Positions 8,845 to 24,685 of a stretch of DNA of 64,000 nt are shown piece after piece. This stretch comes from an uncultured Trueperaceae bacterium (GTDB taxonomy: Bacteria > Deinococcota > Deinococci > Deinococcales > Trueperaceae): NCBI GenBank assembly GCA_963727505.1, contig CAVSGP010000009.1, positions 192,001 to 256,000 on the forward strand, given 5' to 3'. The position numbers and the translations under genes were made by a program. Within the stretch, counting starts at the first letter, position 1. Each line of letters starts with the position of its first letter. Under the pieces are notes generated by a model that saw only the letters and a list, made by a program, of their open reading frames with translations, was not told the origin of the DNA and made no database searches.

Positions 8845-9425
8845 GCCTGGGCCGCCTCGTTGGCGGCGTCGTCGTCGGACGGCTCGTCGTCCTCTTGGCC
8901 GCCGGTGACCAGCACCGTGGCGTTCCCCGAAGTGTAGATGTCGATCTCCGCGGCGATGGCCAGCGCCTTGCGCGCGATCTGTTCGGCGCCGAGATCGGTC
9001 TCGCGCAGGAGCGCCGTTGCCGCAGCCTGCGCGTAGGGGCCGCCGGAGCCCACCGCAGCGATCGGCTCGTCCGGTGCGATGACGTCGCCGACACCCGAGA
9101 GGGTGAGGATCTGTTCGTCGTCGGCCACGATCAACATCGCCTCCAGGTTGCGCAGGGCGCGATCGGTGCGCCACTCCTTGACGGTGTCGACGGCGGCTTT
9201 CAGGAGGTTGCCCTTGGCCGAGGTGAGGTAGCCCTCGAACTTGTCGAGCAGGGTGAAGGCGTCGCTGACGGCCCCGGCGAAGCCGGTGACCACGCGGCCG
9301 TCCGCGAGGGCGCGCACCTTGACGGCGCCGCGCTTCACGACGGTCTCGCCGAGGGTGACCTGGCCGTCCCCCGCGATGGCGGTGATGCCGTCCTTGTGGA
9401 CGGCCACGATGGTAGTACCGTGCAT
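8841..9425 (-). CDS. hslV: HslV protease subunit
   Basis: HGTTIVAV (N-terminal Thr nucleophile), [28 protein letters not shown]; alternative start 9434. Confidence 0.96.
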
Positions 9426-9535
9426 GCGCTTCATACGCCCCGCAGCGTATCAGAGCGCCGGAGGCGGCCGGGTATCCGTCGCGCGGCGCGTGGTGGCCAC
9501 CGACGCGGGGGGCGCGCGGGGGGTAGCATGGCGCC

Positions 9536-9925
9536 ATGCGAGCGCACGAGTTCGGAGGGGGTTGGCTGGAGCTGACCGTCGGTCCGATGTTCGGCGGCAA
9601 GTCCGAGGAGTTGATCCGTCGGGTCAACCGGGCGCTCATCGCGCGGCAGTGCGTGCAGGTGTTCAAGCCCGCCATCGACGAGGGGCGGTTCCTCGATTCA
9701 GCTCTCGTGGCCCTGGCGCTCGAGCTCGCCGACGCGGGGACGCGGGTACTGATCGCGGGTCTCGACCTGGACTTCCGTGGTGAGCCGTTCGGCCCCATCC
9801 CGGCCCACGTCGACGACCCTTTCGTGCTGGTGGGGGCCGCCGAGCGTTACGAGCCGCGTTGCCGGGCGTGCCACACGGTGGCGCGCTCGGCCCGGCTCAT
9901 GCCACTGTTCGACCTAGCACGTTAG
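9536..9925 (+). pseudogene. tdk: Internally deleted thymidine kinase paralog (two in-frame deletions, 41 and 33 aa)
   Basis: Colinear with tdk at 24074 but lacks DRYV...VAVD and TLLA...GGRP, including the first Zn-ligand pair CSC; P-loop GPMFSGKS changed to GPMFGGKS. Confidence 0.85.
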
Positions 9926-9934
9926 GTCCTCGGG

Positions 9935-12379
9935 GTGTCGACGGTGATCGAAGTGACGCTCCTGGGGGGTCCACACATTCGCGTGGACGGCCTCGAGGTG
10001 ACGCTGGGCTCGCGCAAGGCGGTCGCGCTGCTGGCCTACCTGGCTCTGAATCCCGAGGGGGCGACGCGCGAGCAGCTCGCCGAGTTGCTGTGGACGCCAG
10101 GAAAGCTGGGCAGCGTGCGCCAGGCGCTTTACGAACTGCGCAAGCTGCCGGATGCGGATGCGTGGCTCGAGGAGCGTGAGGGGCGCGTGCGCGTGCGCGC
10201 GTCCACGGATGTGGAGGCCTTCGAGGACGCCGTCGCAACGGGCGAGCACGGCGAGGCGCTGGAGTGCTGGGGTGGTCCGCTGCTCGCCGGTATCGACAAG
10301 CCCGGTGCCGGGCCGTTCCGTGAATGGCTGGCCGTGGAGCAGGCGCGCCTGGATATGGCCCGGCTCGAGGTCATGCAGCTTCGTGCCGCCGAGCTCGAGC
10401 GCGAGGGGCTAACAGCGGACGCCCTTGCCATGGTGGACGCCCTCCTTGCCGCCGATCCGCTCAACGAGACGGCCTACCGCAGCGCCATGTGGTTGCACTA
10501 CCAACTGGGACACCCCGCCGAGGCGGTGGCTGCCTTCGAGCGCTGCCGGGGGGTGCTTCGGCGCGAGCTCGACGCGGCGCCGCTGCCCGTCACCATTGAG
10601 CTGGCCGACGCCATCGGCCGCGGCTTGCCGCTCCCGGTCCACGCTGCCGTGCAGGCGCTGCCCGACCGGCTCCAACGCCTCCTCCAGGCGGTGGCGGTGG
10701 GGCGCGGGGAGCTTGGAGCGGCGGCGCTGGCGCACACCCTCGAGCGCGACCCCTACGAGGTTGCCGCCGGCCTGGTAGAGCTCGAGCGCCGGCGCCTGCT
10801 CAATGCCCACCACGGCGTGGCGCGCCACATCCTGTATGACACGGCGACCACCACGCCAGCCCCCGTGGCGCGCCTGATGCACGAGCGCATCGCACAGTGG
10901 CTCGAGGCCGACGGGGCCGGACCCGGTGCCGTGGCGCGCCACTGGCTCGGTGCCCACCGCCCGGACCGCGCCGCGCCGCTGTTGCTGGAGGCCGCGGAGG
11001 CCGCCGCCGCCGAGGGGGATCCGGGCGCTACGCTGCGGCGCTGCTACCGTGCCTTGTGGGCCGCCGAGGGCGAGCCGCGGGTGAGCCTGCGCGCCCTGTT
11101 CCTACTGGAGGGGGCCGCGGCGCAACGCCAGGAGCTCGAGACGCAAGAGGCCGCCCTCGGCGCGGCCGAGCGCATCGCCCGGAAGGGGCAGGACGACCGC
11201 GACCTGATCGAGGTGCGGTTGCGCCGGTCTCGGCAGCGACTGGCGCAGGGGCGTGTCGAGGACGGCCTGGAGCTGGCCCGGCGCGCCCTGGACGCCGCGG
11301 AACGCGTGTCCGACGCGCGCCTGATCAGTCGCGCCCGCAACGGCTTGGGCGGCGCACTGTTCTACGCAGGCCGGATGGAAGAGGCCGAGGACGCCTTCGC
11401 GTCCAACCTCGATGCCGACAACGCCACGGAGCAATTTCGCGCCCGCAACAACCTCGGCGCCATCGCGGGCATGCGCGGGGACTTCGCGCGCTCCTACCAG
11501 CACTTCGAGGTGGCGCTCACGCTGGCGCGCAGCGAGGGGCGTCGCGACGACGTCGGCGCCTGCCTCAACAATCTGGCGGCGACCGCCGAGCGCATGGCGC
11601 TCTACCGCCGCGCCGCGCAGCACCTGGAGGAGGCACGCCAGCTCGCTCGAGATCGCGGCAACCAGGCCTACGAGGCGCGGCTGCTGGCGAATCTCGCCGC
11701 GGTGTACGTCAAACAGGGGGCGCTGGGGCCGGCCTGGAACACGGCGGCGGAGGTGGAGGAGATGGCGACGGAACGCGGGGACGACCGCATGCGGGCTCAG
11801 GCGCTCGAGCTGCGCGCCGAAGTCGCCCGGCACTGCTTCGCCGACGAACGCGCCGAGGCGCTGTTCCTCGAGGCCGAGGGCATCGTGCGGGGCCTTGGGG
11901 ACGAGCGCAAGGCGCGACAGTTGGCGGGGCAGCTGGCCGTCATGAGGGAGGCGGCCGCGGCGCCCATGGAGCGCGCCGAGGACGTGCTGACGGCCATGGA
12001 GGATGCCGGCCAGCAGGACCTCGCCGCCTGGTTGTGGCTGGAGTGCTCCCTTCGGGCTCCCGATGCCGCCGACGCCGCGCGCTACGCGGAGCGTGGCGCC
12101 GCGGCTCCGGGCAACCCGCACCGGGCGAGCCTGGCCCGGGGGGCCCGCGCCTGGGCCCAGTGGCGCGCCGGTGCGGCCGGCGCCGCGGCGGAGCTGGCGC
12201 GCGCCGCCGACGCTCTCGAGTCGCTCGGGGCCGTCGAGGCGACGCTGATGTGGCGGCTGGCGGCGCGGGCGGCGTCCAGCACCGAGGACGCGGACGCCGC
12301 CCGCGAGCGCGAAGCCGCGCTCACCGCGGCCCAGGCGCCGGGGTTGCCCGCGCTCCTGCGCCGATCGCTGGCCGCTTGA
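9935..12379 (+). CDS. SARP-type transcriptional activator (OmpR-like wHTH + BTAD + TPR repeats)
   Basis: LLGGPHIRVDG..SRKAVALLAYLAL..TREQLAELLW, GPLLAG..FREWL, DPLNETAYRSAM..P.PVT; C-terminal NNLG/NNLA TPR repeats. Confidence 0.9.
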   Translation: MSTVIEVTLLGGPHIRVDGLEVTLGSRKAVALLAYLALNPEGATREQLAELLWTPGKLGSVRQALYELRKLPDADAWLEEREGRVRVRASTDVEAFEDAVATGEHGEALECWGGPLLAGIDKPGAGPFREWLAVEQARLDMARLEVMQLRAAELEREGLTADALAMVDALLAADPLNETAYRSAMWLHYQLGHPAEAVAAFERCRGVLRRELDAAPLPVTIELADAIGRGLPLPVHAAVQALPDRLQRLLQAVAVGRGELGAAALAHTLERDPYEVAAGLVELERRRLLNAHHGVARHILYDTATTTPAPVARLMHERIAQWLEADGAGPGAVARHWLGAHRPDRAAPLLLEAAEAAAAEGDPGATLRRCYRALWAAEGEPRVSLRALFLLEGAAAQRQELETQEAALGAAERIARKGQDDRDLIEVRLRRSRQRLAQGRVEDGLELARRALDAAERVSDARLISRARNGLGGALFYAGRMEEAEDAFASNLDADNATEQFRARNNLGAIAGMRGDFARSYQHFEVALTLARSEGRRDDVGACLNNLAATAERMALYRRAAQHLEEARQLARDRGNQAYEARLLANLAAVYVKQGALGPAWNTAAEVEEMATERGDDRMRAQALELRAEVARHCFADERAEALFLEAEGIVRGLGDERKARQLAGQLAVMREAAAAPMERAEDVLTAMEDAGQQDLAAWLWLECSLRAPDAADAARYAERGAAAPGNPHRASLARGARAWAQWRAGAAGAAAELARAADALESLGAVEATLMWRLAARAASSTEDADAAREREAALTAAQAPGLPALLRRSLAA

Positions 12380-12407
12380 CGGGCGCTTGACGGCGCCCGA
12401 CTACGCT
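12376..12407 (+). promoter_or_regulatory. Tandem-repeat promoter P1: TTGAC-N6-TTGAC-N10-TACGCT
   Basis: ttgacgggcgcttgacggcgcccgactacgct; 11-bp period typical of SARP sites; same architecture at 12641 and 23123. Confidence 0.7.
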
Positions 12408-12644
12408 CCTAACACACCACCCCACCGCACCGGCGCCGCCCGCGCCAGCCTTAGGCACCTGAGGACGAGCGAGCAACGCCACTTCGCCGATCTCGAAGGG
12501 TTGCTCGACTTCCTCCATCGCGGGGCGTCCCGGCGACCGCCGGCGCCTGGCCCCCCGACGCGCCCTCCCTCACGATCGATGTCGAAACCTGCGAGTCACG
12601 GGATGCCGGCGTGGCCCCCGTCCGACGCCGCGCAGCCCCATTGA
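12387..12644 (+). pseudogene. Remnant of a small BTAD-associated protein
   Basis: RASLRHLRTSEQRHFADLEGLLDFL resembles the WRASL..TGERRGF.SLE.L..FL small proteins I recall beside BTAD regulators; no start codon downstream of promoter P1. Confidence 0.45.
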
Positions 12645-12672
12645 CGGGCGCTTGACGGGCCTGCCCTAGGCT
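12641..12672 (+). promoter_or_regulatory. Tandem-repeat promoter P2: TTGAC-N6-TTGAC-N10-TAGGCT, driving the 12744-22363 operon
   Basis: ttgacgggcgcttgacgggcctgccctaggct; RBS GGGAGGGAG before ATG 12744. Confidence 0.75.
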
Positions 12673-12743
12673 CGCACGCAAGCACGAACGTTGCGCCAAC
12701 CTCGGCGAGCCCCGGCCGCCGAGGCTCCTGGGAGGGAGATCCG

Positions 12744-13877
12744 ATGCCCAAGCTCTACCTCGGTGAAGCCCTAGGTCTGATCGGCAAGACGCTGCCGTTC
12801 CTGTGGATCAGGCTCGGCAGTTACCTGGTCCTGGGCGTGGCCCTGGGCGTCTACTTCGGCGTGCTGGGCGGGGTCGCCTGGTTGCTCGGTCGCCTCTGGG
12901 CGCCGCTCGGCTTCCTGGTGTTCCTCATCGCCTTCGTCGGCGCCATCGGCGTGGTGCGTTGGGCCAGCCGCTACTACTTCTACCTCCTCAAGGCCGCCCA
13001 CACCGCCGTCATGACGGAGTTCATCACCCAGGGGCGGGGGCCGCAGGGCTCGCAGGTGGCCTACGGCAAGGAGCAGGTCATGACCCGCTTCCGCGACACC
13101 AGCATCCTGTTCGCCGTCGATGTGCTGGTGGACGGCATCGTCAAGGCCATCGTCCGCACCTTCACGCGCATCGCGGGGATCCTGCCGATCCCCGGCATCC
13201 AGGGGATCGGCCGCCTCATCGAGCGCGTGGCCGTGATGTCCACCACCTTCATCGACGAGGCGGTGCTGTCGCGCGCCTACAAGGAGCGCGAGCAGAACGT
13301 CTGGAAGGTCGCCCAGGACGGCGTGGTGCTCTACGCCCAGGCGTGGAAGCCGATCCTCGCCAACGCCGTGGTGCTGGCCCTGATCGGGTACGTCGAGTTC
13401 GTGCTGTTCCTGATCGTGCTGGGACTCCCGGCGGTCGCCATCGGTGCGGCCCTGCCCGGCCTGCGCCTGGCGCTGGGCATCGGCGTCATCATCGGTGCCT
13501 GGATGCTCAAGCTCGCGCTGGCCGACGCCTTCTCCCTCGCCGCCACGCTCATCGCCTACCACCGGGCCACCGAGGGGCTCGCGGTGGACGAGGAGTGGAA
13601 GGCGAAGATCGCCGGCGTCAGCAACAAGTTCCAGGAGCTCGGGCGCAAGGCGGCGGAGGCGGTCCGTGCTTCTCCCGGCGGCGCCGAGTCACAGCGCCCC
13701 GCCCCCCCGACGGGCGCGGCGACGGCCGCCGCCGGCGCGGATCCTGCGGCCCGCGGGTCCGCGAGCCCCGGCGGTGGCGCCACGGCGCTCCCCGCCGACG
13801 ACGAGCCCCGGGCGCCCTCGCCATCGCCCGCGACCGGTCCGACCGGCGCGGACCAGGGCGAAGACCGGGAGCGTTGA
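12744..13877 (+). CDS. Hypothetical multi-pass membrane protein with a low-complexity Pro/Ala C-terminal tail
   Basis: Several hydrophobic segments, strong RBS, GC3-rich codons. Confidence 0.8.
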   Translation: MPKLYLGEALGLIGKTLPFLWIRLGSYLVLGVALGVYFGVLGGVAWLLGRLWAPLGFLVFLIAFVGAIGVVRWASRYYFYLLKAAHTAVMTEFITQGRGPQGSQVAYGKEQVMTRFRDTSILFAVDVLVDGIVKAIVRTFTRIAGILPIPGIQGIGRLIERVAVMSTTFIDEAVLSRAYKEREQNVWKVAQDGVVLYAQAWKPILANAVVLALIGYVEFVLFLIVLGLPAVAIGAALPGLRLALGIGVIIGAWMLKLALADAFSLAATLIAYHRATEGLAVDEEWKAKIAGVSNKFQELGRKAAEAVRASPGGAESQRPAPPTGAATAAAGADPAARGSASPGGGATALPADDEPRAPSPSPATGPTGADQGEDRER

Positions 13878-13880
13878 GCC

Positions 13881-14501
13881 ATGGGCAAGAAGCTCGCCAT
13901 CGGATGCCTCAGCGTCTTCGTGGTGCTGTTCCTGGCCGGCGGCATCTTCGCCTACGTGCGTTTCGTGCGCCCCGCCCAACAGGCCTTCGCCGCCGCCAAG
14001 CAGGTGGCCGCCTTCCAGTCGCTGGACCGCGACGTGCGCGAGCGCGGGGACTACCAACCCCCCGCGGACGGCGTGCTACAGGCCGACCAGGTGGAGCGCT
14101 TCGTGGCCGTCCAGTCCGCCATCTCTGGTGACCTCCAGGGACGCGTGGACGAGCTCGATCGTCGCTACAAGGCCCTCCACGACAGCGGTCGAGAGCCCGG
14201 CTTCCGGGAGCTGGCGCGCGCCTGGTCCGACGTCGCGGGCCTGCTGGTGGAGGCCAAGCGCAGCCAGGTGAGTGCCCTCAACCGCAATAGCTTCTCCCTC
14301 GCGGAGTACGCCTGGGTGCGCGGGCAAGTCCTACGGGCCGCCGGTTACGCGGTGTATCGTGTGGACCCATCGCAGCTCGCCTCGGGGCGGGGGAACGTCC
14401 CCGTCGAGGAGGCACCCGTGCCGGCCGCCAACGTGGAGCTGGTGGCCCCCCACGCCGAGGCGCTCGACGCCGCCTTCGCCCTCTCGGTCTTCGGCCTGTG
14501 A
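13881..14501 (+). CDS. Hypothetical protein with N-terminal membrane anchor and helical soluble domain
   Basis: MGKKLAIGCLSVFVVLFLAGGIFAYVRF single TM; 3 nt after the previous stop. Confidence 0.8.
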   Translation: MGKKLAIGCLSVFVVLFLAGGIFAYVRFVRPAQQAFAAAKQVAAFQSLDRDVRERGDYQPPADGVLQADQVERFVAVQSAISGDLQGRVDELDRRYKALHDSGREPGFRELARAWSDVAGLLVEAKRSQVSALNRNSFSLAEYAWVRGQVLRAAGYAVYRVDPSQLASGRGNVPVEEAPVPAANVELVAPHAEALDAAFALSVFGL

Positions 14502-14577
14502 CGTCCCTGGCGCCCCCGGCGCCCGCCCCCCGTTCCGGCGCCGCCGAGCGCCCGCCATCCGTTGGAGGGAGACCCCG

Positions 14578-16983
14578 ATGACACGACGCCCCCCTCGCCA
14601 TCACGTCCGTCCGGCCGCCGGCGCCGGATCGGTTCGGCGCTGGGCCCGCCTCCTCGCGGTGCTCGTGCTGCTGGTCGCCCCCACCGTGGCCACCGCGCAG
14701 GGCGACGCGTCGGGGCGTCCGGTGTGGCTGCAGGACCTGGACCGTTACGTCGCGATCGTGCGCGCAGGGGTCGACGACACCGAGCCCGGGCGCCGGTCGC
14801 TCGATGATCTGAGCCTCGAGCTGGCGATGGAGGAGCCGGATGCCATCGTCGACTGGGTGCGGAGCCACGTCGCGTACCAACCGTACGCGGGGGTGCTGCG
14901 CGGGCCCGAGGGCACCATCGTCACCGGTGCCGGCAACGCCTGGGATCAGGCCCTGCTCCTCGCCACGCTCCTCAAGGACGCGGCGTTCGACGCCCGCATC
15001 GCCTACGCACGGTTGCCCGAGGGTGCCGCGGCGCGCCTGCTGGCCGCGGTCGCGGCACCGCCGAGCGCGGCGCCCGACGTCGCCGTCCCGCTGGGAGAGC
15101 TCGGCACGGTCTTGGGCTTCGATCCGGACCAGGCCGAGGCCTGGATCGCCGAAGCCGACAGGCAGCTCGGCGAGCTGCGGGACCGGAGCGATGCCATGGC
15201 GGATAGCCTGCTCGCGGCGCTGGAGGGCGCGGGCGTCGAGATCGGCGGCGACGCGTCGGAGCGGGCCGCGCTGCTCGCCGACGCCGAGGACTACGCGTGG
15301 GTCCAGGTGCGGCTTCCGGGCGGCGACTGGCGCGACGTGCACCCCGCGTTCCCGGAGGCGCCCTCGGATCTCTCGCTCGAGCCCGCCGGCGTCCTCGAGG
15401 ACGCCGTGCCCCCCGAACACCAACACCGCCTGCGTATCGAGCTGGTGCTCGAGCAGCGCCTGGGCGACCGCCTGGAGGAGAAACCCCTGATGCAACCGTG
15501 GGAGCGCCCCACGGCCAACCTCTTCGGTCTTCCGCTCACCATTGACATCTCCGCCGACGGCATGGACGACGCCGCCTACGCCGCCGGCGACGCCCAGGCC
15601 GTGCTGGACGCCACGCACTTCTTCGCCCCCAGTTTCAACGGGGCGTTGCCCCCAGGGGGCAAGGTCTTCGACCTCGCCGGGCGGGTCGTGCCGCCCGACG
15701 CCGCCGGGAACGTCGCCGCGGCGCTCTTCCAGACCGTCTCAAACGCAGCCAACAAGGCCGCGAGCGCCCTGGGCGACCTGGGCGGCAACGACGCCGAGGA
15801 CGACGCCGGCGCGATGGCGTTGGCCTCCGTGTTCGTGCGCTACACGCTCATCCTCCCGGGCGGCGAGGAGCGCAGCGTGCGGCGCGACCTGCTCGATCGG
15901 GTGGGCGCCGCCAACCGCGCCCGCGGGAGCAGCGCGTTCGGCAACGACATGAGCGAGATCGACATGCTCGAGGCGCTACAGGGAAGCACCACGCTCATGG
16001 CCATGACCGGCTCGTTCAGCGAGGCGTACAGCCTCCGGCGCGCCCTGGACGCCACCGTGGCTGTGCGTGACGAGCTTGCCCGCATCGACGAGGCGCTGCG
16101 CTCCGACTCGTTCCGGAGCTACCGCCCCACCACGGAGCTCGCCGACGCCACGCGCCCCATGGCGCACGTGCGGCTGTTCGACCTCTTCGATGCCGGGACC
16201 GCGCCCGAGGGCGCGGTGGTCTTCCGTCCCGCACCGACGCTGGTGGCGTTCGAGCAGCACTGGCCCCAGGGTCGCGACGTGGTCGACGTGATCGCCAACC
16301 CCACGAGGGCGCTGACCATGGGCGAAGACGGCCCGGCGCCGTTGCCGCGGGAGGTCCTGCGGCGCGGTGTGTGGGAGACCCGCACCGAGGGGCTCCCGCT
16401 GGCGGGCGACGGGATCGCCCGCCACGGCGCCTTCGACAGCGTCGCGGCGGCGCTCGACGATGGCGCGACGCTCGCGGTGGTGCGCGACGCAGCGCGCCTG
16501 CCGGGCGACTGGCCCGCGCGGAGCCGGGCCGCCGCGGCGCGCGATATCGAGGCGGGGTACGTGGTGCTCTTGCCGGAGGGTCCGCCGGCCGACGGTCGGG
16601 AGCCGGCTTGGTTCCGCGTCGACCCCGGGCGCGGCGTGGCCCTGGGGCTCGCCGGCGCGGGTCGGGGGCAGGAGGCCACCGAGTACCTGGTGACCGAGAC
16701 GCTCAGCTTCTTCAACGACTACGCGGGCATCGCCCTGATGGTCCGCGACCTCCACGCCTGCGACGCGAAGCCGAAGCTGAGCGAGAGGGTGTGCTGCCTG
16801 ATGGAGGTCTACGTCAACAACGTGATCGTGGGGATGCCCCTCGGGGCGGCCGTCGGCGGCGCCTTCGGCGTGGCCGGCAGCACCATGCTGACGGCCATGA
16901 GCGCGGCCAACGCGGTCCCGAACTTCGCGGCGAACATGGGCGTCTGCGAGGTCATCGACCCAACGAATCTCGATGACCTGTGA
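14578..16983 (+). CDS. Secreted transglutaminase-like domain protein
   Basis: Signal peptide (LLAVLVLLVAPTVATA-Q); WVRSHVAYQPYAGVLRGPEGTIVTGAGNAWDQALLLATLL TGase-core-like segment; YAWVQV..WRDVHP; RBS GGAGGGAG. Confidence 0.75.
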   Translation: MTRRPPRHHVRPAAGAGSVRRWARLLAVLVLLVAPTVATAQGDASGRPVWLQDLDRYVAIVRAGVDDTEPGRRSLDDLSLELAMEEPDAIVDWVRSHVAYQPYAGVLRGPEGTIVTGAGNAWDQALLLATLLKDAAFDARIAYARLPEGAAARLLAAVAAPPSAAPDVAVPLGELGTVLGFDPDQAEAWIAEADRQLGELRDRSDAMADSLLAALEGAGVEIGGDASERAALLADAEDYAWVQVRLPGGDWRDVHPAFPEAPSDLSLEPAGVLEDAVPPEHQHRLRIELVLEQRLGDRLEEKPLMQPWERPTANLFGLPLTIDISADGMDDAAYAAGDAQAVLDATHFFAPSFNGALPPGGKVFDLAGRVVPPDAAGNVAAALFQTVSNAANKAASALGDLGGNDAEDDAGAMALASVFVRYTLILPGGEERSVRRDLLDRVGAANRARGSSAFGNDMSEIDMLEALQGSTTLMAMTGSFSEAYSLRRALDATVAVRDELARIDEALRSDSFRSYRPTTELADATRPMAHVRLFDLFDAGTAPEGAVVFRPAPTLVAFEQHWPQGRDVVDVIANPTRALTMGEDGPAPLPREVLRRGVWETRTEGLPLAGDGIARHGAFDSVAAALDDGATLAVVRDAARLPGDWPARSRAAAARDIEAGYVVLLPEGPPADGREPAWFRVDPGRGVALGLAGAGRGQEATEYLVTETLSFFNDYAGIALMVRDLHACDAKPKLSERVCCLMEVYVNNVIVGMPLGAAVGGAFGVAGSTMLTAMSAANAVPNFAANMGVCEVIDPTNLDDL

Positions 16984-16996
16984 GGGTAGGGGCGCC

Positions 16997-19900
16997 ATGA
17001 CCAAGGGCCTCCCGCAACACCAGACGGGTCGCCGATCCGGCACCCACGATGGCGGGGCCGGGCGCGCGCGGGAGACGTTCGGCTTCGCCCGCTGGTTGCT
17101 CGTGCTGATCGTCGGCGTGACGATGGGCGCGGCGTACGCCCAGGACTGCACGCTCGAGACCGAGCCCAACGACGTGCCGGCCGACGCCGACACGCTCGAG
17201 GGGCACGCCTGCCTGGTGGGCGAGATGGCGGGGCAGGACCAGGATGCCTACCTCTGGACCGTGACCGAGGAGGACGCCGCCACGCCCTGGGTCGTCGAGA
17301 CCGAGGGGATCGCGGGTCAGGTAACCAAGGTCGACCTGTTGCGCGTGGCCTTCGCCGACAACGGTCGCGACGTGACCGGCGTCGAGACCCTCGGCAGCTT
17401 CGGAACGAGTGACGGCAGCCTGCAGGCCGGCCCCCCGTTCCTGATCGCTCCCGGGCGCTACGTCCTGGGCGTCTCCAAGAGCGGGGGCGAGGGTCAGTAC
17501 GTCGTCCACCTGCGGCCGGGGGAGGAGCTGCGGCGCGGCCGCCGCCCGGGCCAGGGGGCCGGCCCGGCGGAGAACGCGTTCGCGCACTTTGGCGTGCTGG
17601 ACGGGGAGCTCGAGCTGGATTGGACGGTGGCGGCCGACGGCCCACCGAGCCGCTGGGACATCGAGCTGCGTACGGCCCTGGGCGAAGCGGCGACGCTGGT
17701 GCTGAGCGCGCCGGACGGCGCCACCGTGGCGGAGGCCTCTGCGGACGCGTTGGGCCGGGCAGCACTCCGGTCGCTGGGGCCCGGGGCCGGCGACTACCGC
17801 ATCGTCGTGCGCGGCGCCTCCGGCGGCGCGCCCTACACGCTGGCCGCCGTGCCGACGGGCGTGCTCACCGACGGCGACGAGGTGGAGCCCAACGACGACT
17901 GGAGCCAGGCCAACGTGCTGACCCTGGACCGTCCGATGCACGCCGCCGGCCCGGGCTCGGACACCTTCGTCCTCGACGTGCCGCCCGAGCGGCTCGGGCA
18001 GACCTTCGACCTGAACGTCGGCGGCCAGGCGAACCTCGATGTCCGCCTGTTCGACGCCGATCGGCGCCCCCTGCAGGAGCGCCGCGGGACCTCGGGCGCG
18101 TTGCGCGGCCTGGTGCTGGATCAGGGGCGCTACTTCGTCACGGTGCGGGCACCGGACGACGGGGGTTACACCCTCTCCTTCGCGGGCGCGGCCCCCCCCG
18201 AGGAGGGCAGCGAGAGCGAACCCAACGACGCGCTCGTGGCGGCCGATCCGCTCTCGGACGCGCGGACCGTGCGCGGCGAGTTGCAGCCCCAGGACAAGGA
18301 TGTCTACCGCTTCACCGTCGGCGCACCCACGCAGCTCTGGCGCATCCAGGCGGTGGGTCCGGGCGTGCGCACGCTCGCCACCTACGACGCCGGGGGCGCG
18401 CGCCAGGCGTCGCAGCGCGGTGAAGGGCGCATCCGACTGGACAACCTGGTGCTGCTGCCGGGGGAGCACTACATCGAGGTCACCGGCGACGAGGGGCGCT
18501 ACGCGCTGCGCGCGCTGCCGATCGGGCCCGTGCCGGAGGCCGATCGGGCCGCGGCTGCGCCGCCGCTCGACGACGAGCCAGCGCTCGAGCCGGCGGCCGC
18601 GGCGCCGCCATCCGAGCCCGAGGCCATCGAGCCCGCGGGTCCGCCACCGCCCCCCGGGCTGTCCGAGCTCGAGCCCAACGACGATGAGAGCCGCGCCGAG
18701 CTCTTGGAGTCCTCGGTCGTGCGCGTCGGAGCGCTCCCCGGCCAGGACGACGTCGACATGTACCGCTTCTACCTGGCCAGCGACCAGTACCTGCGTATCG
18801 AGGCGGTACCGCCCGCCGACGGCAGCGTCTTCTTCGACGTGCCTGAGGTGGGCATCCGGGCGCAGCCCGGCGCGCTCGGCGAGAGCGCCGTGCTCGAACG
18901 CCGTTTTCTCGCGGGCAACTACTTCCTGCGTCTGCGCCCGGACATCGCGTCGGACGGGTACTACCAGCTGCGCATGACGCAGCTCGACCCCCTGGCGCTG
19001 CCCGCGGACGCCGAGCCCAACGACGACGTCGCCACGGCCAACCGCCTGCCCGCGGACCTGGTCGTTCCCGGTCGCGTAGGCGAGATCAACGGCGACGACT
19101 TCTACACCCTCCCCACCTTTGCCACCGCCACGACGCTGCATGTCGAGCTCGAGAACGACGATGCGGGGGTGCGGCTCGCGCTGCTGGGCGAGGGTGCGCC
19201 GCGTCTCGACGGGGGCGAGCCGGGCGCCTTCGATGCCGAGCTTCCGGCGGACACCCCGCTGGCGCTGCGCGTGTCGGGGCGCGGTCGCTACCGCATGACA
19301 CTCGCGTTCGGGGCTGAGGTCGACCCCTCCCAGCTCCGGCCGCCGGAAGGCGACACCCGCACCAGTGCCAGCTTCGCGCAGCCCGACTCCCGCGTGGCCG
19401 CGTACTGGCACGAGGGCCAGGTGTGGACCGGCGAGCTCACCCTGGAGAACGGGGCGGACCGCGCGCAGAGCTACGCGCTCCAGGCCGCGTCCAGCAATGT
19501 GGACTTCATCCCCGAGGTGCCGGCCACGTTCGATCTCGGCCCCGGCGAGCGCGGCAGCGTACCGGTGACGGTGCGCATCGCGCCCGACGCCCGCGACGAC
19601 CAGCCGGTACGCATCACCGTGGGCGCGCGAAGTGAGATCGGCTTGGTGACGGCCGCGGCACGGATCGCTCCCGCCTGCGAGGCGCCGCCGGTGGCGCCTC
19701 GCCCGTCGTGGGCGCTGCCGGAGCCGCTGCTCGGACGCCTGGACGTGGCCTGGACGGGGTTGGGTGCGTCCGTGGTGGACGACTCCGGCCGCGACGCCGA
19801 GCTCTTCGACGGGCGCACCTCCCCGGCGACCGGCGTGCACCACGCCGTGGGGGAGTCCGTGACGATCGACCTCGCGGGGGACGAGCCGATCCTCCTGGCA

Positions 19901-22363
19901 GGTACCACCCTTCACCCCCAGGCGGGCTCGGCCGTCCGGCGCCAGCTCCGCGACTTCCGGGTCCTCGTCTCACTCGACGGCTCGAGCTTCACGCCCGTTC
20001 TCGAGGGGCGTCTGTCCGCCGCCCGCGTCGAGCAGGCGTTCGTGTTCGAGGAGCCGGTGCCGGCGCGTTACGCGCGCCTCGAGTACGGTGCCGACCAGGG
20101 TGGCCGCACCGATGGTTCCCTGGGGGAGTGGAAGCTCATCGCGGCCGAGGACGCGCCGCTGCCGGCCGCCAACCTCGCCGATCCCGCCCTTGGCGGCCAC
20201 GTGGTGTGGTCGGACCCGTTGGTGCCGCAGGCGCGCGGCCACGCCAGCCTTCTCGACGAGGAGGCCAACCGCCCCAGCGTCGACGGGCGCGGCGTCGACG
20301 CGGCCGTGTGGGTGGTGGGCTTCCAGCACGACCGCGCCGGCCAGGTCGCGCGCCTCGAGTGGGCGGAGTCGCCCGACAGCCGGCCCGAAGGACAGTTCCA
20401 GGACGTGGTGGTGGAGGCAAGCCTCACCTCCCCGGTGGGCCCGTGGCGCCCGCTCGCCTCCTGGGAGTTGCAGCGGGATGCTGCGGGAGTCGCCGTCCTG
20501 AGCCTCGACGAGCCCATCTGGGCCCGGTACCTGCGGTTCACCGCCCGCGGCCAGCAGGAGGGTGCGCGCACGCTCTTCCCGCCCGACACGCTGCGGGTGA
20601 TCGAGCGCGCGGCGGGGGACGGCTACCGCTCCATCCTCGGCGAGTGGGGGCAGTACCGGCGGGAGGCGGCCTACGAGTGGACGCGCGACCGCGCCCCCGC
20701 CGCCGCCGTGACCGAGGCCGATGACAACGACACGCGGGAGGCGGCCCAACCCCTCGCCACGGGCGAGGTCGCGGAGGGCACGGTGGCGGTCGCCGAGGAC
20801 GTGGACTGGTACCGCGTGACGGTGCCAGACGGGCAGAACCACCTTGAGCTGCGGCTCGAAGGCGACCCCACCATCGCCTACATCTACGACCTGACCGACG
20901 CGGACGGTGCACCGGTGCCGTACGAGGAGTCGGCGGACGGCGACGCCGTGGTGCTACGCGCCTTCGTCGAGCCGGGCACGTACGACCTCCGGCTGTCCGA
21001 ACCCAAGCGCTCGGTGATCTTCGCCTGGGACACGAGCGGAAGCGTGGGGCCGTACACGCCCATCACCTACGCCTCGCTGGCGCGCTTCGCCCGCGACCTG
21101 GACCCGGAGCGGGAGTACGTGCAGCTCCTGGCCTTCAACGACCCGGCGCCGATCTGGTTGCTGCCCTACTGGAGCGCCGATCCCACCCGCGCGCAGCAGG
21201 CGATCAACGACTTCGATCGCGACGCCGATTCGAGCAACTCCGAGCTCGCCCTCCTCACCGCCAGCCGGGCGCTGTCCCAGCGCGAGGGCACGCGCGCCGT
21301 GCTGTTCATGACCGATGCGGAGTCCCCGGGCTACGCGCTGACGCCCGCGCTGTGGCGCAGCCTGGAGCAGACGCGGCCGCGCGTATTCACCTTCGAGATC
21401 AGCACCTCCGGCTCGGACTACTCGCAGGACCTGATGCAGTCCTGGGCCGACGTGAACCACGGCTTCTACGACTACGCCCGCAACGTGGGCGATTTCGACG
21501 TCGGCTTCGCGCGGGCGAGCTGCCTGCTCCGGCGCCCCAAGCGCTACCGCGTCGAGGTCACCACCAGTGCCGAGACGCCGCCCGGGCCCGGGAAGATCCG
21601 CGTGGTCGCGGGAGCGGGCGCGACGCTGCCGGCCGTAGAGGTCATCCTCGACGCCTCGGGCTCGATGGGGAAGAAGCTCCCCGACGGCACCTCGCGGATC
21701 GACGCGGCGCGCGGTGTGCTGAGAGACTTCGTGTCGGAGGTGGTGCCCGAGGGCACGCCCTTCGCGCTGCGGGCCTTCGGGCACATCAAGCCGTCGTCGT
21801 GCGAGACCCGGCTGGAGATGCCGCTCGCGCCCCTCGACGCCGGGGCCGCCTCCGACGTGATCGATGCCATCGAACCCAAGCTGCTATCGCAAACGCCGCT
21901 GGCGGACTCCATCGCCGCCGTGGCCGAGGACCTCGAGGGCGCGCCAGCGGGCGGCACGCTGCTGCTGCTCACCGACGGCGAGGAGTCCTGCGGGGGCGAC
22001 CCTGCGGCGGCGCTGGTCGCGCTTCGAGACGCGGGCGTCGACGTTCGGCTCGCCATCGTGTCCCTGGGTCTGGAGGAGGATGCCGCGAGGGGCCGCTTCG
22101 GCGCCCTCGCCGAGGCGGCCGGGGGCAGCTACGTCGACGTCACCGGTGTGGATGCGCTGCGCGCATCCGTGACGGAGGCGGCGCACCCGGCCTTCGACGT
22201 CCTCTCGGCCGACGGGGCGGTCGTCGCGTCGGGCCGCGTCGGGGGGGACGCCGTCGAGGTGCCGGCGGGCGTCTACCGTGTGGTGGTCGGCGGCGCGCCC
22301 GCGTTCGAGGACGTGCGCGTCGGGGGGGACGCGTCCGTCGAGCTCGAGCTCGCCGCCCGTTGA
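16997..22363 (+). CDS. Giant secreted protein (~1790 aa): six E-x-E-P-N-D/PPC-like repeats, Ig-like and discoidin-like domains, two VWA domains
   Basis: Signal peptide ending AYA-Q; ETEPND, EVEPND, ESEPND, ELEPND, DAEPND, EADDND; MIDAS motifs WDTSGS and LDASGSM; LLLTDGEESCGGD. Confidence 0.85.
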   Translation: MTKGLPQHQTGRRSGTHDGGAGRARETFGFARWLLVLIVGVTMGAAYAQDCTLETEPNDVPADADTLEGHACLVGEMAGQDQDAYLWTVTEEDAATPWVVETEGIAGQVTKVDLLRVAFADNGRDVTGVETLGSFGTSDGSLQAGPPFLIAPGRYVLGVSKSGGEGQYVVHLRPGEELRRGRRPGQGAGPAENAFAHFGVLDGELELDWTVAADGPPSRWDIELRTALGEAATLVLSAPDGATVAEASADALGRAALRSLGPGAGDYRIVVRGASGGAPYTLAAVPTGVLTDGDEVEPNDDWSQANVLTLDRPMHAAGPGSDTFVLDVPPERLGQTFDLNVGGQANLDVRLFDADRRPLQERRGTSGALRGLVLDQGRYFVTVRAPDDGGYTLSFAGAAPPEEGSESEPNDALVAADPLSDARTVRGELQPQDKDVYRFTVGAPTQLWRIQAVGPGVRTLATYDAGGARQASQRGEGRIRLDNLVLLPGEHYIEVTGDEGRYALRALPIGPVPEADRAAAAPPLDDEPALEPAAAAPPSEPEAIEPAGPPPPPGLSELEPNDDESRAELLESSVVRVGALPGQDDVDMYRFYLASDQYLRIEAVPPADGSVFFDVPEVGIRAQPGALGESAVLERRFLAGNYFLRLRPDIASDGYYQLRMTQLDPLALPADAEPNDDVATANRLPADLVVPGRVGEINGDDFYTLPTFATATTLHVELENDDAGVRLALLGEGAPRLDGGEPGAFDAELPADTPLALRVSGRGRYRMTLAFGAEVDPSQLRPPEGDTRTSASFAQPDSRVAAYWHEGQVWTGELTLENGADRAQSYALQAASSNVDFIPEVPATFDLGPGERGSVPVTVRIAPDARDDQPVRITVGARSEIGLVTAAARIAPACEAPPVAPRPSWALPEPLLGRLDVAWTGLGASVVDDSGRDAELFDGRTSPATGVHHAVGESVTIDLAGDEPILLAGTTLHPQAGSAVRRQLRDFRVLVSLDGSSFTPVLEGRLSAARVEQAFVFEEPVPARYARLEYGADQGGRTDGSLGEWKLIAAEDAPLPAANLADPALGGHVVWSDPLVPQARGHASLLDEEANRPSVDGRGVDAAVWVVGFQHDRAGQVARLEWAESPDSRPEGQFQDVVVEASLTSPVGPWRPLASWELQRDAAGVAVLSLDEPIWARYLRFTARGQQEGARTLFPPDTLRVIERAAGDGYRSILGEWGQYRREAAYEWTRDRAPAAAVTEADDNDTREAAQPLATGEVAEGTVAVAEDVDWYRVTVPDGQNHLELRLEGDPTIAYIYDLTDADGAPVPYEESADGDAVVLRAFVEPGTYDLRLSEPKRSVIFAWDTSGSVGPYTPITYASLARFARDLDPEREYVQLLAFNDPAPIWLLPYWSADPTRAQQAINDFDRDADSSNSELALLTASRALSQREGTRAVLFMTDAESPGYALTPALWRSLEQTRPRVFTFEISTSGSDYSQDLMQSWADVNHGFYDYARNVGDFDVGFARASCLLRRPKRYRVEVTTSAETPPGPGKIRVVAGAGATLPAVEVILDASGSMGKKLPDGTSRIDAARGVLRDFVSEVVPEGTPFALRAFGHIKPSSCETRLEMPLAPLDAGAASDVIDAIEPKLLSQTPLADSIAAVAEDLEGAPAGGTLLLLTDGEESCGGDPAAALVALRDAGVDVRLAIVSLGLEEDAARGRFGALAEAAGGSYVDVTGVDALRASVTEAAHPAFDVLSADGAVVASGRVGGDAVEVPAGVYRVVVGGAPAFEDVRVGGDASVELELAAR

Positions 22364-22366
22364 CAG

Positions 22367-22398
22367 CCCCGCGGGCCGGCCACGGCCGGCCCGCGGGG
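22367..22398. terminator. GC-rich hairpin between convergent genes
   Basis: ccccgcgggccggc-cacg-gccggcccgcgggg, perfect 14-bp stem. Confidence 0.7.
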
Positions 22399-22426
22399 GG
22401 CGTTCGGACTCGTACGCGTTTCGGGG

Positions 22427-23101
22427 CTAGAACTCCGTGCGGATGGCCCCCACCACCTGATCCACGGCCGCGTTGGAGGCCTCGGCCAGCAGCGGGCCTA
22501 CCTCCGGATCGTCGTAGGCGATGCGGCCGGTGGGGATGCGGTTCACCGCTACGTTGGGGTTGGAGGCGTCGCCGGCGCCGGTCATCGACACCACCACCTC
22601 GCCGGTGATGATGTCCGTGGCGCGCACGTCCACCTCGACCTGGGCCGTGGTGGAGCCCAGCGTCACGCCCAGAAGGCTGACCGTGGGCTTCGCGATGGTG
22701 GCGCGCGTGACCACCCCGGTCACCACGTAGCCGGCGCCGGCGGCCTCCGCAAGCGCCACGGGGTCGAGGGACTCTAGCCCCTGTTGCGCGATCAGATCCT
22801 GCAGCTCGCTGCGCTCGACGATGGTGTAGCAGCCCGAGGCCTTCATGCGGGTGATGAGCCGCGCCGTCGCGGCCGACTCCACCCCGGTCACCGTGGTGCC
22901 GTACTGGGAGGTGGTGTTGTCGAACTCGAAGATCGCCACCACGGGGATCTCGCTGCTGGCGCAGGCCTCCGGACCGGCGTCCTCGACGGCTGCGGCGTCC
23001 TCAGCCTCCGTGGACGGCGCCTCCGTGGCGGTGGGCGCGCAGGCGGCGAGGAGCACGACCAACAGGGGTATCACGGTCAGTGCTATACGGCGTGGCATCA
23101 T
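22427..23101 (-). CDS. CsgG/HfaB-family lipoprotein
   Basis: Lipobox LLAAC; VAIFEFDN, YTIVERSEL..LIAQQ, GAGYVVTG.VT, VDVRATDIITGEVV motifs. Confidence 0.8.
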   Translation of the reverse strand: MMPRRIALTVIPLLVVLLAACAPTATEAPSTEAEDAAAVEDAGPEACASSEIPVVAIFEFDNTTSQYGTTVTGVESAATARLITRMKASGCYTIVERSELQDLIAQQGLESLDPVALAEAAGAGYVVTGVVTRATIAKPTVSLLGVTLGSTTAQVEVDVRATDIITGEVVVSMTGAGDASNPNVAVNRIPTGRIAYDDPEVGPLLAEASNAAVDQVVGAIRTEF

Positions 23102-23122
23102 GGCTCTCCTTTCGGCGACCGT

Positions 23123-23154
23123 AGCCTACATGTGGGTCGTCAACGCCCCGTCAA
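23123..23154 (-). promoter_or_regulatory. Tandem-repeat promoter P3: TTGAC-N6-TTGAC-N10-TAGGCT, driving the CsgG-like gene
   Basis: Minus strand ttgacggggcgttgacgacccacatgtaggct; RBS AAGGAGAG follows. Confidence 0.75.
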
Positions 23155-23174
23155 AGTGCCCGGGAACGCGGCCG

Positions 23175-24035
23175 TCAGCGGACGGACAGCGGCCTGCGGG
23201 CCAGCACCCCCACGTTGCCGCGCGCTCTGGTAGCGGATCTCGTACGCCCCGGGATCCGTGGGTACGTCGATGGTGAGCGGCCACCCCGCCGAGGTGTAGG
23301 TGTACGTTCCGGACGCCCCCTCGGACGCCTCGCCCGGCACGATGATCACGTAGTCTTTCGGGCCGTTCGGGCCGGTCCAGACGACGTGGAAGACGCTGCC
23401 GACGAAGACGGCGTCGTCGATGACCTTCAGCGTGGCCGGGTTGGGGGTGACGGTCAGGGTGCGGCGGGCCGCGACGGTGCCGGCGCTCAGGTAGCGCAGT
23501 TCGAGCGTGCCGGCGTCCAGTGGGGCGACGGCGCCGAGATGCTCGACGCCCTCCACGTAGCCGATGAAATGCCCTCGGGCGTGGTCCAGGACACCGGGTT
23601 GCGCCGTGACGACGACGTCGCCGGCCACGGGCTCACCCTTCCACGTCACCGCGTACTCGGCGTTGACGAAGGTCGCCGGGCCGGAGAGGTGTTGGCCGCT
23701 TTGGGGGCGAGATCGAACCCGATGACGCGCAGCTCGACGGCGGGCTGCATCGCCCCGAGTTTCGCCAGCGCGGCCGTCAGGTCGCCACCGCAGGACTCCT
23801 CCCCGTCGGTGACGAGGACGATCATGCGCTGTCCCGACCCGGCGCTGAAGTCGCCGACCGCGGCCAGCAGAGAGCCGACGATCGGCGTCGCTCCCCTGGC
23901 CTTGACGGTGCCTACGCTGGTCTGCAGGCTTGCCTCGTCCACACCCGAAAGCGGCACGAAGAGCTTCGTCTCGTCGCACGCGCCGGGTGCCAGGGTGTCC
24001 ACGGTGGAGCCGTAGATTCTCAGGCCGACGTCCGT
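23175..24035 (-). pseudogene. Truncated, frameshifted VWA-domain protein with C-terminal beta-sandwich repeats
   Basis: One frame gives VGLRIYG..GATPI..IVLVTDGEESCGGD..VIGFDL; another gives VVWTGPNGPKDYVIIV..PGAYEIRY; frameshift near 23690; N-terminal MIDAS missing. Confidence 0.75.
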
Positions 24036-24073
24036 CGCTCTAGCGCGCCGGCACCCTGGGGTAGCATGACGGC

Positions 24074-24685
24074 ATGCTAGCGCACGCCTTTGGTGGAGGC
24101 TGGATCGAGCTGATCGTCGGCCCCATGTTCAGCGGTAAGTCCGAGGAGCTCATCCGGCGCGTCAACCGCGCGCTCATCGCCAGGCAACGGGTCCAGGTGT
24201 TCAAGCCCGCGATCGACGATCGTTACGTGCCGGAGGCGGTTGCCTCGCACGACGGTCGCTCCCTGAAGGCGATCCCGGTCGACGACACCGCCGGCGTCCG
24301 GCATTTGCTCGCCGACGAGACGCAGGTGGTGGCGGTGGACGAGGGCCAGTTCTTCGACGACGCGCTGGTGGGGCTGGCGCTCGAGCTCGCCGATGCCGGC
24401 AAGCGCGTCATCGTGGCCGGGCTCGACCTCGACTTCCGGGCAGAGCCGTTCGGCCCCATGCCTACCCTGCTGGCGCAGGCCGAGGTGGTGGAGAAGCTGA
24501 CGGCGATCTGCTCGTGCGGACGCGCCGCGACGCGCACGCAGCGTCTCATCGGCGGGCGCCCGGCCCACTACGACGATCCGGTCATCCTGGTGGGGGCGTC
24601 GGAGCGATACGAACCGCGCTGCCGCAGCTGCCACGTCGTTCTCAAGGAAGCGCGCGACACCCCGCTGTTCGACCTGGCATCGTAG
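24074..24685 (+). CDS. tdk: Thymidine kinase
   Basis: [12 protein letters not shown]-loop, [26 protein letters not shown] Zn site; TAGCAT-N6-ATG. Confidence 0.96.

Follow-up and report, generated by a model that had tools for sequence, protein, structure and literature searches.

In a 64,000-nucleotide stretch of DNA from an uncultured Trueperaceae bacterium (the window; C9:192001-256000 of genome G000, which is 3.26 Mb long, about 70% G+C and 97% complete), we found a gene cassette whose conserved core is a pair of adjacent genes: TG, encoding a transglutaminase-like protein that by alignment has lost its catalytic triad, and GIANT, encoding a giant protein with PPC, discoidin and two von Willebrand factor A (VWA) domains. 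The pair recurs side by side in five phyla, is probably undescribed and, as judged from sequence and predicted structure, has a probable role at the cell surface, possibly directed against neighbouring cells. An earlier note on this DNA, written by a model, had recognised no named system with this combination of genes, and we likewise found no published description of TG-GIANT in a search that covered few subscription papers; the architecture supplements of PMC3482391 could hold the family. Our preferred reading, to which we assign a probability of roughly 0.42, is that GIANT forms a surface platform and that TG, as an exchangeable carrier, bears a membrane-active tail that acts on contact; this functional assignment is much less firm than the regulon and the transfer history presented below. 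The result couples a large TG family to one giant partner in five phyla, with a 420-residue domain lacking a solved match, and makes TG a handle on the unexplained N-terminal module found in one class of RHS toxins. We refer to genomes as G (G003 belongs to the same genus as G000 and G019 to another), to loci as L and to proteins as P, and to a polytopic membrane protein and a membrane-anchored protein of the cassette as MEM and ANCH.

TG was matched in 13 of 36 genomes of the same family, and the central 753 residues of GIANT were matched in the same 13; among 24 genomes from other families of the order we found no TG and one weak GIANT match (E 3e-4). The family genomes are kin and not independent, and these co-occurrence counts are given without a significance test. 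Scanning with a TG alignment, with one genome kept per species, yielded 80 TG loci (a scan of contigs with the single protein yielded none), and the GIANT core was present in 38 of them (8 of 21 in Trueperaceae, 2 of 9 with an unclear name and 28 of 50 elsewhere); where non-Trueperaceae loci had at least 5 kb of flank on both sides, GIANT was present in 15 of 21. TG and GIANT stand side by side in Deinococcota, Pseudomonadota, Desulfobacterota, Chloroflexota and Acidobacteriota, a count that leaves out a Rhodothermales record (L049) whose TG-GIANT locus is near-identical to that of a Desulfobulbaceae record (L051), one of these two bins probably being mixed. The cultured species Albidovulum sediminis (L050) has the two-gene core. 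Because the other cassette genes were rarely found in the 50 loci outside Trueperaceae (a CsgG-like gene in 2, MEM in 1, ANCH in 1, tdk and a full-length activator in none), gene content defines the conserved cross-phylum core as TG plus GIANT, and the remaining genes as a family-level setting, flanked by hslUV-tdk and aspS, in which the genes change order and direction from one genome to another. MEM was matched in 11 family genomes, 5 of the 13 with TG and 6 of the 23 without it (a floor, as a stricter first pass was used), and on this distribution is accessory and not tied to the core. The earlier note had proposed a five-protein machine and had made neighbourhood conservation its check; conservation held for the TG-GIANT pairing in five phyla but not for MEM, ANCH, tdk or the activator, which are rare or missing in the loci outside Trueperaceae. 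An obligate five-gene system is ruled out by the MEM distribution and by the GIANT-only partnering outside the family.

Several variants of the core were also observed. Three Planctomycetota loci (L089, L090:8700-15828 and L106:8577-16888) have a CsgG-like lipoprotein gene with a zinc ribbon upstream of TG, followed in two of the three by a different VWA protein (1250-1540 aa, zinc ribbon) after TG, and L123:2485-13710 is a co-oriented run of TG, GIANT, CsgG-like gene and a 1123-aa BTAD gene distant from tdk. Additional VWA proteins with other partner domains (legume-lectin, beta-propeller, Ig repeats) occur at L023:15785-17341, L035:6733-9939 and L011:2230-4239, and the VWA partner set of TG-GIANT loci looks modular from these arrangements. 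In several phyla TG adjoins a gene for a small (145-190 aa) exported protein or lipoprotein without a Pfam match (L031:1968-2537, L046:9030-9491, L050:9084-9569, L077:12453-12902, L011:14780-15226); these proteins may form one accessory family.

TG belongs to a large family, with 7,344 clusters matched at E <= 0.001 and 2,435 clusters at 50% identity matched at E <= 1e-30. Its description in the earlier note as transglutaminase-like is borne out by family and fold: PF01841 is matched at E 6e-7 (30.1 bits versus a cut-off of 23), and the N-terminal domain matches TglA (Z 11.1, rmsd 3.4, 118 residues aligned), 3isr (Z 10.3) and LapG (Z 9.9, rmsd 4.1, 137 residues aligned). However, the residues aligned with the catalytic triad are Ala121-Tyr239-His255, and across 222 homologues, with positions assigned by motif and alignment, we found Ala-Tyr-His in 147, Ser-Tyr-His in 41, Ser-His-Asp in 11, Ala-His-Asp in 8 and other combinations in 15, with Cys in none. 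The surroundings of the cleft keep invariant Y-x-G-x-L-R-G and N-x-x-D motifs. By these alignments TG is a pseudo-enzyme that has lost its triad.

Beyond this domain, the predicted structure of TG residues 276-801 is confident (mean pLDDT 84, pTM 0.81), and a fold search with it returned at best a helical hairpin (Z 5.8), with no Foldseek match at E 0.001 in the PDB or among viral models; a search of solved structures with the TG sequence likewise gave nothing significant. Residues 276-697 (about 420) are thus a confidently predicted domain without a match among solved structures, which does not in itself prove a new fold. The body ends in WWRxDPxTGxTLG...GRG by alignment, is free of Cys in 189 of 222 homologues and is preceded by an N-terminal signal-like segment in 189 of 210. 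A search for longer proteins carrying the body gave 12 matches: five Ig-rich surface giants match both of its ends (iE <= 6e-16), and among the RHS proteins six out of seven show matches at the TG end (iE <= 2e-12) and, more weakly, at the DPxTG end (iE 5e-9 to 0.008), one RHS-type protein, P0289, having a C-terminal MsddA-like deaminase. By these profile matches, the TG body of about 700 aa is common to the N-terminal module of RHS polymorphic toxins. The giants P0282-P0286 (2600-3750 aa, with Ig, LVIVD, Calx-beta and LCCL domains) carry the whole body and no RHS repeats. Polymorphic toxins with inactive N-terminal transglutaminase domains have been described (Zhang et al. 2012, PMC3482391) and resemble TG in having a signal peptide followed by a triad-less transglutaminase domain, with both body ends matched in TG-DUF6531-RHS proteins. 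TG differs from them in having no RHS repeats (no match by Pfam), enzymatic toxin tip, adjacent immunity gene or within-gene tail swapping; it has instead a short tail with glycine zippers and a giant VWA partner that stays constant.

The tail that follows GRG is hydrophobic, with a median of 95 residues in the 222 homologues; counted from the invariant Gly, position +5 is Glu in 75% of the tails and position +6 is Tyr in 63%, and a hydrophobic helix comes next. Between one and four membrane-like segments are present in 185 of 222 tails and none in 37. In a set of 215 tails (7 outside 55-150 residues were left out), GxxxG occurred 495 times versus 344 +/- 17 in shuffled tails and GxxxGxxxG 114 times versus 44 +/- 7 (200 shuffles), the first helix was membrane-like in 102, the number of Cys was even in 184, and the loop between the helices was not positively charged (K+R 0.071, D+E 0.086). 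Because the Cys number is even and the loop is not basic, we infer that the tail is a disulfide-bonded unit located outside the cytoplasm. Glycine zippers occur in contact-dependent bacteriocins (PMC5380434), and the Cdz bacteriocin of Caulobacter described there has a comparable hydrophobic unit, about 90 aa long, that is rich in Gly/Ala and contains GxxxGxxxG motifs. The TG unit differs from Cdz in being fused to a 700-aa carrier and in its paired Cys, and we found no recurring type I secretion genes and no CdzI-like gene after TG. A TG subfamily (L131:6058-8172, L136:7451-9718) carries a 45-residue insertion with a second DPxxG-like motif ahead of the hydrophobic helix.

GIANT begins with a signal-like segment followed by five E-x-E-P-N-D/PPC-type repeats, an Ig-like domain, a discoidin (F5/8C) domain, a PPC domain and two VWA domains, and by alignment a second discoidin domain may also be present. 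The DxSxS motifs of both VWA domains are invariant or nearly so in 110 homologues. Against solved structures, sequence searches with GIANT gave weak CBM32 and collagenase matches only. GIANT has no C-terminal hydrophobic membrane anchor; its relative P0108 ends in an SLH domain. Prediction of a complex between TG (46-801) and the first VWA region of GIANT scored 0.00 in two runs on this one region, a result that counts for neither side.

G003 and G008 share GIANT proteins that are 92% identical beside TG proteins that are 31% identical; the window compares with these two genomes at 63-64% for GIANT and 29-33% for TG, and a stand-alone TG in G020 has 76% identity to the window TG. Across 378 pairs from 28 loci, TG and GIANT identities were weakly correlated (rho 0.25). 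TG matches outnumber GIANT matches 5:1 in G035, 4:1 in G020 and 3:1 in G017; G029 is the opposite, with 3 GIANT and 2 TG matches. By these comparisons, TG genes are swapped and multiplied whole while GIANT stays. Swapping of the tail within the TG gene was sought but not found: tail identity follows body identity (mean 0.93 at body identity above 0.9, with no tail below 0.2 at body identity above 0.6), and the tails (0.22) are no more variable than two internal TG regions (0.18 and 0.23).

These features lead us to propose that a SARP-like activator would turn on the three cassette promoters and that TG and GIANT, from their signal peptides, would be exported by Sec. GIANT would then serve as the conserved platform, its calcium-type PPC repeats forming a stalk and its discoidin and two MIDAS-bearing VWA domains potentially binding surface glycans and proteins, as their families suggest, while the dead TG body would hold the disulfide-stapled, glycine-zipper helical tail. 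On contact, the tail would be presented to or inserted into a foreign membrane, making the pair a device for contact-dependent interaction or antagonism; in Trueperaceae, a ring of the CsgG-fold lipoprotein may act as an outer-membrane dock or helper. A more specific version, which we regard as less likely than not, casts TG-GIANT as a new weapon that soil and sediment bacteria use on contact: a constant giant lectin/VWA platform would select target surfaces and load interchangeable pseudo-transglutaminase carriers, each with a disulfide-stapled glycine-zipper pore unit, and the TG body, with its unmatched fold, would be a general Sec-dependent delivery module that also heads RHS toxins; if true, this would be a new delivery route for membrane-active cargo. 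Several results weigh against the contact-dependent reading. No toxin or bacteriocin family was matched by any of 60 tails searched (out of 71 locus tails and that of the window), none of which exceeded any Pfam cut-off, no immunity gene recurred 3' of 73 TG genes, tails are not swapped within the gene, the RHS proteins match the C-terminal end of the TG body weakly, the 185 tails with at least one membrane-like segment fit a plain anchor equally well, and ordinary membrane proteins commonly contain glycine zippers as well (PMC5380434). Directly after the 73 TG genes came GIANT (17 cases), a gene in the opposite orientation (26), some other co-oriented gene (15), a small gene nearby (8) or the end of the contig (7), and the small nearby genes belonged to no recurring family except for one pair.

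The closest alternative, which we hold to be only somewhat less probable, is that the pair is a membrane-tethered adhesion or envelope scaffold, with the tail anchoring TG in the producer's own membrane, the dead cleft gripping a GIANT peptide or a wall component, GIANT displayed as an adhesin, and TG variety reflecting drift or binding specificity. GIANT's lack of an anchor of its own, the SLH domain of P0108, the abundance of membrane-like tail segments and the missing immunity gene all fit this scaffold, as does the presence of the TG body at the head of non-toxin giant Ig proteins, and inactive transglutaminase domains have been proposed to anchor proteins at the surface via peptide binding (PMC3482391). 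However, paired Cys and the absence of a positive-inside loop argue against a tail that crosses the inner membrane and keeps its loop on the inner side, 37 of 222 tails lack a membrane-like segment, and a simple anchor leaves several divergent TG copies per GIANT and whole-gene replacement unexplained. If the scaffold reading is true, it would represent a new tethering of giant adhesins without sortase or type I secretion.

We consider it improbable that the CsgG-like protein forms an outer-membrane pore secreting GIANT or TG, as CsgG does for curli and as the export model of the earlier note had it. The protein is a lipoprotein with a CsgG core domain, as are CsgG, PelC and PqiC; it scores 63.3 bits against PF03783 (cut-off 20.8), has a lipobox Cys21, gives a profile match to CsgG chains at E 4e-7, is the only PF03783-type gene found in G000 and has its own SARP box. 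Within the family, strong orthologues (E < 1e-49) occur in 11 of the 13 genomes with TG and in none of the 23 without it, two of the latter giving faint matches (E 9e-5 and 1e-3), and a CsgG-like gene precedes TG in the three Planctomycetota loci. Against export, none of the stretches retrieved around the 28 TG-GIANT loci beyond Trueperaceae contains such a gene, which makes passage of GIANT through a CsgG pore doubtful, and the protein reaches only 16 bits against the csgG equivalog (cut-off 505). In the profile alignment its first membrane hairpin aligns but is about 4-6 residues shorter than that of E. coli CsgG, and the second is unaligned. No curlin repeat (PF07012) was found in G000, which is 97% complete, with the E. 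coli control positive. CsgG substrates are small unfolded peptides, and GIANT is a 190-kDa multidomain protein. Related lipoprotein rings of the wider CsgG-type fold, PelC and PqiC, form no pore (PMC13631591).

Slightly less probable again is a pilin-like tail, cut after GRG by a prepilin peptidase to give a filament tipped by the VWA protein. The invariant Gly, E+5, Y+6 and hydrophobic helix of the tails resemble the Flp/class III signal pattern, but none of the 60 tails matched a pilin family, no pilus genes recurred among the neighbours of TG loci, the signal-like N-termini would place the cut site on the wrong side of the membrane, and in the L131 and L136 subfamily the EY helix follows the insertion with other spacing. 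Least probable is an active TG protease or cross-linker that processes GIANT, as the earlier note had suggested by analogy with LapG on LapA: the fold matches, the invariant cleft motifs and the 11 Ser-His-Asp homologues would allow it, but the window has Ala-Tyr-His, none of the 222 homologues has Cys, no PF06035 match was found in G000, and neither LapD-like genes nor those of type I secretion are recurrent neighbours in the loci.

The Lap system consists of LapG, LapA, LapD and type I secretion. TG-GIANT resembles it in placing a transglutaminase-fold protein, with the LapG fold match given above, beside a giant VWA-bearing surface protein, and differs in that TG is four times longer, has no catalytic Cys and carries a signal peptide for export; neither LapD nor a type I exporter recurred among 937 called proteins of the 80 loci, the whole genome not having been searched for either. 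The CsgG-like protein in turn differs from curli CsgG in its shorter first hairpin, its score far under the equivalog cut-off and the lack of curlin in G000. On these comparisons TG-GIANT is not a Lap system, a curli system or a classical polymorphic toxin. The MoxR-vWA ternary conflict systems and the Esr pathway (PMC8195603; bioRxiv 10.64898/2026.09.08.750141) likewise place vWA genes and transglutaminase genes close to a large surface protein; in contrast, the VWA domains here are within the exported giant and the transglutaminase is inactive, no MoxR ATPase occurs in the window or among recurring neighbours of TG loci, and no kinase or FHA gene recurs.

Promoter sequences very probably unite the SARP-like activator, the four-gene operon and the csgG-like gene in one regulon. 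The pattern TTGAC-N6-TTGAC occurs 4 times in the 3.26-Mb genome and 3 of these are in the cassette (12376, 12641 and, on the other strand, 23154); because other TTGAC spacings give 0-13 genome occurrences each, the count itself is ordinary and it is the placing of the boxes that is out of the ordinary. Each box consists of two TTGACG(G/C) heptamers with an 11-bp period and a -10 element. Allowing one mismatch, the full box pattern has only three sites in G000, all in the cassette. Elsewhere it was found at 14 of 95 loci, and the 50 loci outside Trueperaceae contributed no instance. We then collected 32 distinct sites from 19 loci where the pattern had been noticed (excluding duplicated loci and one ill-fitting L030 site): TAnnnT, although no part of the pattern searched for, lay 8 nt past the second heptamer in 26 of 32 and 7-9 nt past it in all 32. 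A matrix from 28 sites, trained without the window's own sites but with the near-identical G019 sites, ranked the three window sites top of the genome at 31-33 bits versus 18 for the next. AfsR-type promoters have 8 nt between the second heptamer and the -10 box. The box was absent from several Trueperaceae TG or GIANT loci (e.g. L014, L017, L018, L122 and L123), and several orphan TG genes retain it.

The activator scores 70 bits against PF03704 (cut-off 22), matches the AfsR model weakly (28 bits versus a cut-off of 1430) and has no match to a Walker A motif; it would bind the three boxes. The SARP signature is a run of heptamers that are separated by 4-nt spacers and overlie the -35 region (PMC10972967, PMC3367932), and the locus shares with the Streptomyces SARP regulons described there (AfsR, ActII-ORF4, PimR) a BTAD-TPR activator beside heptamers, the 4-nt spacers, the 11-bp period and the -35 region. 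It differs from them in its Deinococcota host, the lack of an NB-ARC Walker A, the heptamer TTGACG(G/C), and targets that are envelope proteins instead of antibiotic synthesis genes. Since the promoter box names the switch, the locus could be turned on by over-expressing one activator. The three boxes, at activator, operon and csgG-like gene, together with the conserved neighbourhood, support the view in the earlier note of an undescribed, jointly regulated cell-surface locus. A family of small genes (60-95 aa) lies 3' of the BTAD gene or of MEM/ANCH in several Trueperaceae loci and survives in the window as a remnant at 12422-12522; the G019 copy has no family name in NCBIfam. Loci L117-L121, from genomes that have neither TG nor GIANT, carry MEM, mostly with ANCH, twice behind a near-perfect SARP box, and on this pattern MEM/ANCH may be a module of its own within the regulon, serving the envelope or resistance. 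Other BTAD genes of G000 (C4 ~216771-219299, C2 ~58661, C5 ~202274) have no TTGAC box nearby. MEM has no Pfam or NCBIfam match, its atlas neighbours being hypothetical proteins.

Similarity along the window indicates, with a confidence somewhat above that for the regulon, that the cassette came from another genus by homologous double crossover. Positions 12605-23380 are 95.7% identical to G019 and the activator 88%, whereas flanking housekeeping DNA is 70-82% identical to G019 and 84-92% to G003. The left tdk pieces are 95, 86 and 89% identical to the G019 tdk versus 83, 75 and 67% to that of G003, and the right tdk is 92% identical to G003 versus 78% to G019. A remnant VWA-Ig gene changes affinity along its length, with a donor-like 3' end (23102-23390, 82-91% to G019 and 67-78% to G003) and a native 5' part (23402-24034, 76-89% to G003 and mostly 69-70% to G019); a VWA-Ig gene sits between hslV and tdk in G003, G002 and G007, and one lies just past csgG-like in G019. 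Crossovers on the hslV-tdk side and inside VWA-Ig would account for the window order of hslV, donor tdk, cassette, chimaeric VWA-Ig, native tdk and aspS, the spare tdk and the chimaeric gene then decaying after transfer. Because tdk is doubled and MEM could not be found in any of 9 further genomes from its genus, G000 appears to be the recipient; the rise in identity from 88% to 96% points either to two events or to a donor that was not G019. Target-site duplication was rejected as the origin of the tdk pair, since the copies share 70-82% identity and their likenesses are to two different genera. On this mosaic both tdk copies and the decayed VWA gene are recombination scars, and a functional meaning for them is not supported.

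All of the genes named in the earlier note were recovered in place by gene calls and Pfam matches (Table 1); both tdk copies are present, but the left one is broken. Close homologues with a named source belong to Truepera/Trueperaceae. The four-gene run has intergenic gaps of 3, 76 and 13 nt, and the cassette has a G+C of 0.71-0.75, slightly above that of the genes on its left (0.68-0.72).

Table 1. Genes, promoter boxes and remnants of the cassette and its borders (window positions).
Feature	Position	Strand	Description
left tdk	9536..9925	+	donor-type copy; two in-frame deletions (123 + 99 nt) inactivate it; PF00265 matched in pieces
BTAD-TPR SARP-like activator	9935..12379	+	N-terminal DNA-binding region, BTAD residues 88-227, TPR repeats; PF03704 E 3e-19, TPR_12 E 2e-11
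SARP-type box 1	12376..12407	+	TTGACGG-N4-TTGACGG-N8-TACGCT; overlaps activator stop codon
remnants of two small regulon genes	12422..12603	+	G019 counterparts are 94-aa and 148-aa ORFs; about 610 nt gone in three deletions
SARP-type box 2	12641..12672	+	-10 element TAGGCT; putative promoter of four-gene operon
MEM	12744..13877	+	polytopic, 5 hydrophobic segments; family not recognised by Pfam/NCBIfam
ANCH	13881..14501	+	206 aa, N-terminal anchor; MEM usually adjoins
TG	14578..16983	+	801 aa; signal peptide, inactive transglutaminase-fold domain ~70-280, domain ~276-697, hydrophobic tail
TG tail, residues 698-801	16669..16980	+	four Cys; Gly/Ala-rich hydrophobic helices with GxxxG; 3' of conserved body end
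GIANT	16997..22363	+	1788 aa; signal peptide, PPC, F5/8C, two VWA with DxSxS
CsgG-family lipoprotein	22427..23101	-	PF03783; Cys21
SARP-type box 3	23123..23154	-	-10 element TAGGCT; putative promoter of csgG-like gene
broken chimaeric VWA-Ig gene	23140..24035	-	5' end lost, one frameshift, internal deletions; right crossover mark
right tdk	24074..24685	+	intact native copy; PF00265 E 7e-53

The gene breaks are real and not assembly errors, because contigs from two studies reproduce the right end and contigs from one reproduce the left end: those of run X1, which may be the source sample, showed 0 differences from the window over 9387-12136, 22394-23433 and 23408-24099, and those of run X5, from another study, showed 0 differences over 22743-23443 and 23452-24121.

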